The notes under the pieces were generated by a model that saw only the letters and a program-made list of their open reading frames with translations, had not been told where the DNA came from and made no database searches. A stretch of DNA of 63,558 nucleotides, filler included, from Globobulimina sp. (taxonomy: Eukaryota): the NCBI GenBank assembly GCA_003354225.1. It is 30 parts of 30 records of this genome, joined end to end, with 100 filler letters (N's around TTAATTAATTAA, not from the genome) between each part and the next. Parts side by side here need not be neighbours in the genome. Positions count along the whole stretch, not along the records: positions 23,357 to 25,378 come from PIVH01009671.1; 29 more parts are not named here. The stretch is one strand, 5' to 3'. Position numbers and translations under genes: made by a program. Of this stretch, positions 23,237 to 63,558 are shown piece after piece (the stretch's first letter is position 1; the number at the start of each line of letters is the position of its first letter).

Positions 23237-23356
23237 GTATAAAGATCTGTGAAATTNNNNNNNNNNNNNNNNNNNNNNNNNNNNNNNNNNNNNNNNNNNN
23301 TTAATTAATTAANNNNNNNNNNNNNNNNNNNNNNNNNNNNNNNNNNNNNNNNNNNN

Positions 23357-24398
23357 AATTGCATCAAAAACCAATGACAATAACACCACAATAATACCTA
23401 CAACACAACACAAAATAAAATAAAAATACATGCAAACATAAAATGTAACGTACAAAACTTACCTAAAATGTTAAAATTAAGCTGATGACTGTCCCCAAAT
23501 GTAAATAAGACCGCGGATCCCACCAACAACGGAGCGGCAATATACTCGCATTTATGATACACTTTCTTCAAACAACAGACGGATCCGAGCATGACAGAGA
23601 TTAACTTCATCGATTTAAAGATAACCTGAGTCGGATAGTTCAATAATAATAAGGCCATATTGGTCAATGCCCGCGAACACATCATGGCAAATGCCACAAT
23701 TAAGTGATATTTGAGCGCCATTTGTTTCTCAAATATAATGCCAATTATTGATAATATTTTGCTTGCATTTGGACTCAAAGTCCGCTCCAAATATTCCTGC
23801 TTTGGTCCGTTGGATTTCTTGTTTAGCGCTGGATTGTCACATGCATTGCCATTATTTATTAAGGATTCGGTCTCAGATTCCGATAAAACCTCTCTTTGTT
23901 GGGGTAATTGTGTGATTTTTGAGAGGGAGTTGAATAAACGCTCAATCATAGCGAATACAGTGAATATAATTAATTCGACGGCAGTCATAAACCAGCCATA
24001 AGAGAAATTTTCAAATTCGAATTTAAAACCTTCCTCAACGTAACCAGTGAGGACAAAACCAAATAATATGATAATGGTCAATATGATGGCTTGAGTGGTT
24101 GGCTGTAAATGAGATAAATCCATACCAAATAAGGAGACGTTTGTATGGTCGTTTAAGCGCGTTTTTTTCTTTGAGGAATCTACGGAGTCATGTACACGAC
24201 GGGAATGTGTTTGTATGTCCGTTTTTTTGTCGCTTGCGATTTGACTGATTTCTTGCTTGCTGGATGTGGCTATTAAGTAATATTTTCAGTCAAAACACGA
24301 TTTGCACGATGTTCATAGCTTTCGTGCGGTTATTCTCGTTTTTGACTGAAAGTATTACTTATTAGGAGTGATGAACTCAGGTTCTTCATTTGTTGCAT
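23357..24398 (-). CDS. PAPS/nucleotide-sugar transporter (UAA family, SLC35B3-like), 3' truncated
   Basis: LTNMALLLLNYPTQVIFKSMKLISVM. Exons 24398-24359, 24269-23463 and 23397-23357 splice in frame. Confidence 0.85.
24271..24364. mobile_element. MITE-like foldback forming an intron (introner candidate)
   Basis: Inverted arms at 24276-24300 and 24336-24359 (1 mismatch, 1 indel), inner stem GCACGA/TCGTGC, and a direct TATTA at 24271-24275 and 24360-24364. Confidence 0.6.
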
Positions 24399-24616
24399 TG
24401 TATTTTGATGGTTTGTTGCTTAGCGACGGATGGTTTGAACTCAGGTGGAAAAATGTCTAGAAAAGTTTTTTTTAAGATATTGCAGAAACAATAAGAGTGC
24501 AAGGATATGACTGTACAATCTCGAATTTTTAGGAATGTTATCATCATAAAATCTGCAATTTAATCTTGATACAATGAATAAAGCAGAAAAACAATTACAA
24601 AGCCATTTTTTATCTT

Positions 24617-25378
24617 TTATCTAAATGACAGAAACGCCACCAAACACAACAAAATTCCAATAACAATATCAAATATATTCGATCTGTATATATAACACAA
24701 CACAAAGTATAACAAATAAAATACAATATACAATGACATACATTCCTAAATCAAGATTAGTTCCATCTCCATAACAGCCCCCATCATATCCATTTGCTGC
24801 AACAAAGGCAATTATGGCTATTATCGCACATAAACCACTGCATAAAAATAATACGAAAACCTTTGATCTTAATGCGTCTGAACATTGAAATGAGATTTGG
24901 TCCGAAAATATCCCTAAAACACCCAAAAAACACAAAATTAATCCAATAATATTAAAGGCCAACCATGCCTGACCGCCACTGGAATTCAATTAAAAACTTC
25001 CTAAAAAATCTTTTCATTGCCTAAATTTAATAAAATATCAACCAACGAAAAGAAAAGATTTATTTAGGAAATGTTTACTGCATAAATTACCTCCATGTTG
25101 CACACGCATTGTCACATTGTTCATTGTCAAGATCGAAATCCTTACAGAAATCACAAGCATCCTCTAAGGCATCATCGGAACATGACCCTCCACCACAGGC
25201 TCGTTTCCATCCACATGAGAAATCAACACCAAATATCTCATCATGACTCAGTTCATCGACGGCTAATGCTATAATATAAAATATTAAACAAATGATGCCT
25301 AGCACACCACCAATAGTACTATTCGCACCACCTCCACCATCTCCACAGTTACAGTCAACATTTCCGCCACCTCCTCCT
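24617..25378 (-). CDS. Claudin/PMP22-like four-TM protein with Cys-rich first loop (5' truncated)
   Basis: Introns 24979-25090 and 24684-24741 give one frame with four hydrophobic helices, ending ...LVAFLSFR*. Confidence 0.7.
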
Positions 25379-51092: not shown

Positions 51093-51274
51093 GTTGGATG
51101 ATATTGTAATACAGTTTTCCAACTGAAAAACATATGAACTGAACGTAGAATTGAAATATTGAATATGTCAGCAGATAATTGTTTTTATTTGATGGCTAAT
51201 GGCCAGGTGGAGAGCTGCAATGTTAAGTATTTTGCCTATGTTGCTAGGAAATGAATCTGTTTCATTTACATATA

Positions 51275-51417
51275 CTTTAGAATAGGACCTGTTTGAAACA
51301 CCGCGTTTTAGAAAAATTTTAAAACCTATGGAGAGGTCATCACCATCTCCCAACAAAACGACTTGCGAATTTGCGTATTTTAAAAACAATGTGTTTCAAA
51401 CAGGTCCTATTCTAAAG
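51275..51417. mobile_element. MITE, 143 bp, perfect 27-bp TIRs, flanked by TA
   Basis: CTTTAGAATAGGACCTGTTTGAAACAC (51275-51301) and its exact reverse complement (51391-51417). TA at 51273-51274 and 51418-51419. Confidence 0.85.
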
Positions 51418-52055
51418 TAATTTTAGGTATCAGGGTATGACAGAATTTACAGTAAATACTCGATTAATTTTGGTGCGGATTGGAAATTGTCAAAGGAGTA
51501 GAAACATGAATATCTCAATCATGTCGGAAAAATCCATTACAAAAATTTGGGTTTCTATGGAATTATCCATTTGATTTAACCTTCAAATCCTTTAATCCAT
51601 TTATCTGATCGTTTTCTGAAATCAGAAAAGATTTCTGACGAAAGTGTTTTTATGACTATTAGAAAATTTGTACGTCTATGAAAACGGCGCGGCTATAATC
51701 GCTATATTAAATCCATGGACAGCGAACGACAAATATTTCATCGTCTTTTTACGTGTGAACTGCAACAGAAAGTCCGCTGTCTACAAAGAGTATAATCATA
51801 GACAGAGTCAGACCATTAGTTTGATGGAATCATGTTTCAATGACAGAAAAAAAAAGAAAAAAAACAAGATAAAAAAGATCAAAAAAAAACAATATTAATT
51901 AGGATGCTATAAATTATTGAGAACAAATAAGATGAGATGAGAGAGGGTAAAGTGATTAAAAAAATTATCTCATTACAAACATATTTAAATTATCATATTT
52001 AAATTTTTTCTTTATTATAATAATATGTATAAAAAAAAAGAAACTATCAATTACA

Positions 52056-62465: not shown

Positions 62466-63558
62466 TCATAATTCAATTTCAGAAACATGTTGACCTAACT
62501 CTACGACTACAACATTCTGCTTATCATTTACTTCCACCTTATCCACCAATCCTTGTTTTTCTGTGCTTCCATTATTTCCATTTGACTCTGGATCCGTATC
62601 AGTTGATCTATCAAACCCTTCTTCCACAATTCCATTGTCATTCATGTGAGATACACTCGCTCCGCCACCCCCAACCTCTCCCACTTGTTTATACACAATT
62701 TTATCACCGAATGTTAGCATAGCAACGCCAATGAATGACACAGCAACAGACACAGTGAACAATGCAATGTTTAAAACTGTCATCGATCCGAATTCTTCGA
62801 AAAAAACTGCCGCAAACAATATAACTCCGACAATAAAAAATAGCGTATATATAGAACCTACAAAATTGCCTGGATATTCTTTAAGTGCTTCTTCTCTCCA
62901 ATATTCGGAGGTTATTTTGCTGAAATTATTGTCATAGATATCCAAATAAAGTGATCATTGCACACACGTTTCAGTACAAAAACGTTTGAATGTGGTCACA
63001 TTAATTTCGCTCCCTTTATTTGGATATCATTGATTATATACCGAATGCAAATGGTTTGTAATTTGCAATCGGTATATTGCAAATATTAAAATTAATTCCT
63101 AGTGCAAACAAACTAATTAATGTACAAATAACATATAAAATTACCTGAAGCATATTAATAAAAACATGACATAGGAGGCCCAATGTTTTACGTTCTCTTC
63201 GTGAATGTCATATGACTGCGCCGATGCGGTTACAATTTCAATGAAACATTTCATAAATAAAATATTCCACGAACCAAAAAACGCAGACATAAAAATTAAA
63301 GATAGCAATCTGAATATTCCATGCGGTGTAACAACAAATTTAAATAATATAAAATCCACAACAGCGACAACAATAATGATAACAGTAAATATTAGAAATT
63401 CTGTAGCTTGAAATAAGTGTTGTATATCAGCAGCAGTATAGGATATATCATAGGATTTAGGACCAAATACGACGCCAAAGGCACAGCCTATGATAATTAT
63501 CACTGTGCCGATAATTTGCGTTGTATTTAATCTTTCTTTTAAAAATTGCCATGAAAAT
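62466..63558 (-). CDS. NIPA-family Mg2+ transporter-like protein (5' truncated)
   Basis: FLKERL..IIGT.IIIIG..FGP and AAVFFEEF. A single 225-nt intron at 62920-63144 restores the frame. Confidence 0.8.

Follow-up and report, generated by a model that had tools for sequence, protein, structure and literature searches.

A spliced palindromic intron in a Globobulimina transporter gene with the look of a MITE-type introner insertion

The origin of new spliceosomal introns is still debated, and transposon-derived introns represent the best-documented route. New introns of Daphnia that carry short flanking direct repeats have been ascribed to break repair. A further class of short intron, the mirtron, has a pre-microRNA-like hairpin body that starts at the first intron base. 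MITE-type introners are described for Micromonas pusilla and Aureococcus, together with the families bearing terminal inverted repeats (TIRs) of Gozashti et al. 2022 (PMC9860276; PMC11282704; PMC12130899). As set out by Gozashti et al., an introner family needs at least four similar introns; one duplicate motif can belong to an extended TIR, such that many copies are needed to resolve such cases; and the introners of Acanthoeca sp. have TIRs without a target-site duplication (PMC9860276). The nonconventional introns of euglenids, in the description given in PMC11282704, lack canonical borders, and their removal follows that of the conventional introns.

The locus described here is a short intron of a Globobulimina sp. 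transporter gene that folds back on itself almost from end to end, and its closest kind is the MITE-type introner. With the introners of this type described in PMC9860276 and PMC11282704 it has in common a short non-coding TIR unit, GT-AG removal, splice sites in or at the repeat ends and a frame-neutral outcome. It differs in copy number, those introners occurring as tens to thousands of similar introns per genome whereas we found one full copy and one 32-nt partial copy, and in that the whole unit is palindromic, with a donor and an acceptor on both strands and a duplication that is only a candidate (PMC9860276; PMC11282704). It resembles one such insertion, and is not filed here as a member of an introner family because the copies found fall short of the number that defines one. 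As judged from the description in PMC9860276, it is also like the introners of Acanthoeca sp. in having a TIR with a duplication that is absent or unclear, a likeness that fits either the 89-nt intron or the 96-nt palindrome as the whole unit. As in the euglenid nonconventional introns, inverted repeats bring the intron ends together and the borders carry duplication-like repeats, but the borders here are canonical GT-AG (PMC11282704).

The window, by which we mean the whole stretch of DNA analysed (63,558 bases), is made up of 30 separate, unlinked pieces of 2,020-2,024 bases each, in descending order of length. The pieces are separated by linkers of 44 Ns, 12 bases and 44 Ns (for example 23257-23356), leaving approximately 61 kb of real sequence. 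The piece bearing the hairpin intron is 23357-25378. A gene for RPB2, identified by Pfam, sits on the preceding piece and was accordingly rejected as a physical neighbour of the transporter gene; in a PDB comparison it scored higher with mammalian Pol II (640 bits) than with S. pombe (596) or yeast (568). The window is AT-rich, with a G+C content of about 27-46% in 2-kb steps, and its long reading frames stay open with the standard stops.

Contigs of four public runs (X1, X2, X6 and X8) were compared with positions 23460-25080 at a threshold of at least 80% likeness. X1 comprises 1,718,462 contigs (271 Mb) at approximately 5x depth, eight of which matched the 1,621-nt stretch at this threshold; at such low coverage its contigs record presence rather than absence. 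With 0 differences from the window, X1 is probably its source sample. X2 differs at 2 positions in 626 nt, and X6 and X8 are about 5.7-6% diverged.

The sequence-only reading had placed the first intron of the gene on the minus strand, with GT at 24358-24357, AG at 24271-24270 and a length of 89 nt, and the letters agree. The junction this predicts, 24269/24359, is found exactly in X2, X6 and X8, three runs from as many studies; their contigs skip the 89 nt, the junction reads CT..AC on the plus strand and its placement is unambiguous. The junction contigs have depths of 191 (X2), 50.5 (X6) and 24.2 (X8), and in all three runs contigs bridge the intron and none lies inside it. A GT-AG segment of 58 nt (24684-24741, again CT..AC) is likewise skipped in these runs, and at 24980 their contigs break off into letters matching those of the exon upstream of 25090. 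None of the three is recorded as RNA; we take them to be spliced RNA because three GT-AG segments are missing from their contigs. A DNA-like contig of X1 (record 3), on the other hand, runs unspliced through the intron with 0 differences. Positions 24270-24358 (minus strand) thus hold a GT-AG spliceosomal intron, in phase 1 after codon 13 of a UAA/SLC35B-like transporter gene, on the evidence of the sequence and the spliced contigs. It is a genuine U2-type intron at the 5' end of the transporter mRNA, removed efficiently and cleanly despite its hairpin.

At their 5' ends the spliced contigs reach 24455 in X2, where sequencing adaptor follows directly, 24455 in X6 and 24426 in X8. Since the adaptor in X2 and the contig end in X6 fall at the same base, the transcript starts there. 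Transcripts starting downstream of the intron, an outcome that the sequence-only reading had recognised as fatal to its case, are therefore not what the contigs show; the start near 24455 is upstream of the intron. The first ATG of the transcript is at 24398, with none between 24455 and 24398. Read from this ATG, the unspliced frame stops after 22 codons, and the spliced frame enters that of the transporter. The intron is a coding one, and necessary for the protein, because this first ATG joins the transporter frame only via the splice.

Exon 1 (24359-24455, minus strand), as delimited by the ends of the spliced contigs, consists of the 5' UTR (24455-24399) followed by 13 codons and one base, beginning with the ATG at 24398-24396. 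Exon 2 (23463-24269, minus strand) encodes the N-terminal extension, the first membrane helices and the UAA domain (Pfam PF08449, E 3.2e-17). It is followed by a putative second intron of 65 nt (23398-23462, minus strand; GTAAGT..TAG), across which the frame and the homologue alignment continue; this segment is unstructured (fold z +1.4) and lies at the edge of the stretch compared with the runs, where the visibility of a junction is limited. The transcript contigs of the upstream gene end at 24536 and those of the transporter begin at 24455, an intergenic gap of approximately 80 nt from which we judge the genome to be very compact.

Homologues of exon 2 have 59-65% identity, and one of them carries the source name PAPS transporter B3. 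Exon 2 has a single in-frame ATG, which is spanned by a motif conserved in relatives, NDHxNVSLFG[IV]DLSHL, and at the position of this ATG the relatives have Ile or Val, not Met. All relatives have an N-terminal extension of 40-90 residues upstream of the motif. The frame of exon 2 is confirmed by the comparison of the window with X6, in which 29 of 38 differences fall at third codon positions (hand count). Over the exon positions compared, X6 differs from the window at 38 of 667 (23603-24269) and X8 at 41 of 810. The 5' UTR and exon 1 (24359-24455) are less divergent, with one difference from X6 in 97 nt and one from X8 in 68 nt; a rough estimate for the contrast with exon 2 gives a binomial p of about 0.02. 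This low divergence at the 5' end could reflect constraint, recent exchange of the 5' end or contigs of mixed strains. Other contigs of X1, X2 and X6 match the locus solely over 35 bases (23603-23637, conserved NYPTQVIFKSMK codons) and are then unlike it; they probably derive from a paralogous transporter gene.

That nearly all of the intron is hairpin, as had been read from the sequence, was borne out by a repeat search, which returned arms of 26 nt at 24270-24295 and 24340-24365 that are 92% complementary and separated by a 44-nt spacer. The whole palindromic foldback (24270-24365, approximately 96 bp) is a short, non-coding unit with terminal inverted repeats. On the minus strand, its 5' arm (24340-24365) holds the last 7 bases of exon 1 and the GT donor; its 3' arm (24270-24295) ends exactly at the AG acceptor and contains a branch-point-like TTGAC; and the inner part (24296-24339) contributes two further short stems of 4 and 6 bp in the predicted fold. 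The 20-nt core of the arms has one position that is unlike between them, and their inner letters differ by an indel. Searched at up to 3 mismatches, this core has two matches in the window, both of them the arms themselves, with 0.01 expected.

The predicted RNA fold of 111 nt around the element has an energy of -34.1 kcal/mol, compared with -11.6 +/- 3.0 kcal/mol for shuffled sequences (z -7.5; 0 of 200 shuffles as good), and the 89-nt intron alone gives z -6.9. When 110-nt folds were scanned along the sequence (5,739 windows), the element gave the strongest fold relative to G+C content, the top outlier at -5.3 SD, the runner-up reaching -3.4 SD. The hairpin is thus real and far beyond chance. 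The final 26 intron bases are paired in the pre-mRNA with the donor and the 7 exon bases before it. The stem begins at intron base 1 and leaves a 7-nt 3' tail, and stem and inner stems together amount to 82 nt. In the transcript the mismatches between the arms are A.A and C.A, neither of them G.U, and therefore give no pointer to selection on the sense RNA. Rfam returned no match at gathering score in the whole window; on the element itself only generic microRNA-precursor models matched, all sub-threshold, the best at 31.8 bits against a gathering score of 100. A 9-nt repeat shared by the arm and exon 2 was set aside as within chance, by our estimate.

Other small foldbacks exist in this genome. 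At 51273-51419, between short frames, there is a MITE-like element of 147 bp; its terminal inverted repeats are perfect over 29 nt, its spacer is 89 nt, and its sequence is unrelated to that of the 89-nt intron. A putative 225-nt intron (62920-63144, minus strand) of a NIPA-type magnesium transporter gene, across which the Pfam match carries on, from profile position 218 to 230, contains hairpins at 62927-63038 (28-nt arms, 82%) and 63036-63077 (17-nt arms, 94%). A further inverted repeat (895-1000; 23-nt arms, 91%; 60-nt spacer) lies within a 290-codon open frame at 878-1750 on the plus strand. On the same piece as the transporter gene, a 112-nt intron (24979-25090, minus strand) of the upstream gene, which encodes a cysteine-rich membrane protein, also forms an end-to-end foldback (z -4.1). 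Its arms (24991-25008 and 25060-25077) are imperfect, at 83%, and have no likeness to the 89-nt intron, and its removal is indicated solely by the loose contig ends at 24980 in X2, X6 and X8.

The foldback is bordered on both sides by TAATA (minus strand, 24364-24360 and 24275-24271), an exact repeat in the letters, as the sequence-only reading had noted. Its codon arithmetic was likewise correct: splicing gives L-I-T, and removal of the 84-bp core with one TAATA gives L-I-A, with the frame kept. The upstream copy is a candidate target-site duplication or else part of an extended palindrome. TAATA is self-complementary at 4 of 5 positions, and the repeat search extends the palindrome through it with one mismatch; judged by its letters, the repeat is ambiguous, being equally readable as palindrome extension and as target-site duplication. 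If the 96-bp palindrome is taken as the unit, no frame-keeping direct repeat was found flanking it; if the 89-nt intron is the unit, no duplication is needed. An empty site would read TAATAACC if there had been no duplication and TAATAGCC under the 5-bp duplication model.

Copies of the element were sought in the window and in the run contigs. Within the window (30 unlinked contigs), neither the search for the arm core at up to 3 mismatches nor blastn at word size 7 found a further copy; the best blastn match elsewhere is 29 nt long (86%, E 0.006) and lies inside the RPB2 coding sequence. Local alignments of the intron to six other sequences of the window, four introns and two foldbacks, gave background-level scores, the best being 17, a score reached by 10 of 456 window pieces. 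The GTAAT start common to three of six introns was considered as a sign of homology and rejected, as it is the local donor consensus. In X1, among the eight contigs that matched at 80% likeness or more, one contig besides the locus's own touches the element. The depth of the locus contig is 5.2 across the element, the same as in its flanks, and near-identical copies elsewhere are therefore unlikely. Tens of similar copies, had they existed as a family, should have been visible in the X1 contigs, which at their low depth do not prove absence.

The one additional contig, record 4 of X1, is 128 nt long and has a depth of 7.5. It agrees with 24269-24300 at 30 of 32 nt in a gapless alignment and then runs on for 90 letters that are unlike the locus, starting exactly beyond the repeat end. 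We estimate the chance of a match of this quality in 271 Mb at about 1e-5. The match takes in inner letters that are specific to this arm and absent from the other, so copying came after the two arms had diverged. The likeness ends at most 1 nt from the terminus of the inverted repeat. Since that terminus is at once the 3' splice site, a DNA element with TIRs and a transposed intron both end there, and the boundary fits either. Over the 32 nt that are seen, the sequence in this contig behaves as a discrete unit copied elsewhere. It seems to share both the TAATA letters and the AG, which argues against the earlier proposal that the acceptor AG is host sequence, unless there is a strong target preference.

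The window does not contain the sequence that flanks the second copy. One 11-mer of this flank, ACAATGCGTGT, occurs once there (25102-25112, minus strand), next to the donor of the intron in the neighbouring gene; as some 20 11-mers were implicitly tried, this is near chance and was discounted. In public metagenome contigs the 19-nt arm was found at 62 loci, with a single match at each, and in viral contigs at three. These were rejected as real copies, as blastn of the element against all 65 loci gave a longest match of 31 nt, equal to chance, and their number is about that expected, by estimate, from 18 specified bases in such a collection.

On the age of the intron, the contigs of X6 and X8 have the same junction form as the window gene when spliced, TAATAA/CC (the slash marks the junction). 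Such a form results from splicing, whereas an empty site under the duplication model would give TAATAGCC; to judge from these letters, the relatives probably share the intron, or the insertion made no duplication. Since the junction is the same in relatives about 6% diverged, a very recent gain is not indicated. No transposase was seen, nor, among the run contigs at the locus, an empty site or a polymorphism, those of the close relatives being transcripts. Four proteins of distant relatives (P0002, P0005, P0007 and P0011), a group at 49-65% protein identity, appear, from their aberrant ends, to be genomic ORFs. All four are uninterrupted from the start codon through the N-terminal extension to the first helices, and they break elsewhere, at places where the window gene is continuous. 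Intron positions in this gene are therefore not conserved and this intron is not ancient; an old intron at the same position in orthologues, which would have told against the sequence-only reading, is absent from all four of these genomic-looking ORFs.

We lean, with measured confidence, towards a palindromic unit, discrete and low in copy number, that entered this site by insertion or copying and has been tolerated because its ends serve as splice sites. The unit, either a MITE-like foldback or a copied intron unit, would have landed at codon 13/14 of an N-terminal coding region that had until then been uninterrupted. The repeat ends read CTAWTAA/GTAATA inward, so that each strand would offer a GT donor (7 nt inside one end), a branch-point-like TTGAC (some 20 nt ahead of the opposite end) and an AG at the very terminus. 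A palindromic insert built in this way would be spliced out whichever way round it lies. What we infer in this account is the insertional origin, how the unit moved and any influence of its hairpin on splicing.

It is unlikely, in our assessment, that an ordinary intron turned into a hairpin in place and was kept for a useful RNA structure, whether through the approach of donor and acceptor or through a small RNA released after debranching, in the manner of a mirtron. Like the 3'-tailed mirtrons, this is a hairpin intron whose ends are set by splicing; the stem starts at the first intron base with a mere 7-nt 3' tail, and generic microRNA-precursor models of Rfam do match. Those matches are nevertheless far below threshold, and the 82 nt of stem and inner stems are longer than is typical of mirtrons. 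The end-to-end foldback of the 112-nt intron on the same contig (z -4.1) is in keeping with such an origin, but 2 of the 4 introns on this contig are unstructured. Also in keeping with it is the contrast between exon 1 with the UTR, which differs from X6 at 1 of 97 nt, and exon 2, at 38 of 667. Against it, the arm mismatches are A.A and C.A with no G.U, the pairing enters the exon by 7 nt and halts exactly at the AG, as that of a DNA palindrome would, and a near-identical arm is present at another locus with the same boundary.

An active, multi-copy family of MITE-type introners seeding many introns, in which TAATA is a genuine target-site duplication of 5 bp and the host supplied the AG, was the proposal of the sequence-only reading, and we consider it quite improbable in that form. 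The intron it described is real and spliced, is a TIR foldback, and has ends like those of a discrete copied unit, the second partial copy losing its likeness within 1 nt of the repeat end. The TIR, the exact 5-bp direct repeat, the frame-neutral outcome and the further arm copy with a matching boundary would all be expected of such a family, and known introners act in this way in the accounts of PMC11282704 and PMC9860276. The copies found do not support a multi-copy family: against the at least four similar introns required in PMC9860276, one extra partial copy was found in X1 and none in the window, and the locus contig in X1 is at single-copy depth. In addition, the second copy appears to share the letters of the supposed duplication and the AG, and the diverged relatives show the spliced junction form rather than the empty-site form. 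A narrower version, which we hold just as tentatively, would make the foldback one of a family of strand-symmetric introners, low to moderate in copy number, whose terminal repeats carry donor, branch site and acceptor on both strands; these would be spliced out either way and be active in a protist lineage with fast turnover of intron positions and no introners described.

Filler DNA captured in staggered double-strand-break repair, where TAATA would mark the repair and snap-back synthesis would have produced the palindrome, would account for the exact 5-bp direct repeat at the borders and has a precedent in Daphnia, but we think it very unlikely, as a second arm copy at another locus is unexpected for a one-off filler and the sole local template-like match is the 9-nt exon 2 repeat, within chance by estimate.

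The palindromic unit inserted or copied into the transporter gene, our preferred reading, has a transposon-like look, and its membership of a multi-copy, intron-making family is only a candidate. What is in hand is an intron that has been verified by spliced contigs, that equals one palindromic unit base for base and whose splicing is needed by the protein. Should there be no more than one or two copies of the unit, it amounts to a structured first intron and an ordinary curiosity. If there are more copies, its symmetric splice signals would show how a foldback stays neutral in either orientation, and Globobulimina would add a lineage in which intron gain is datable between strains approximately 6% apart.
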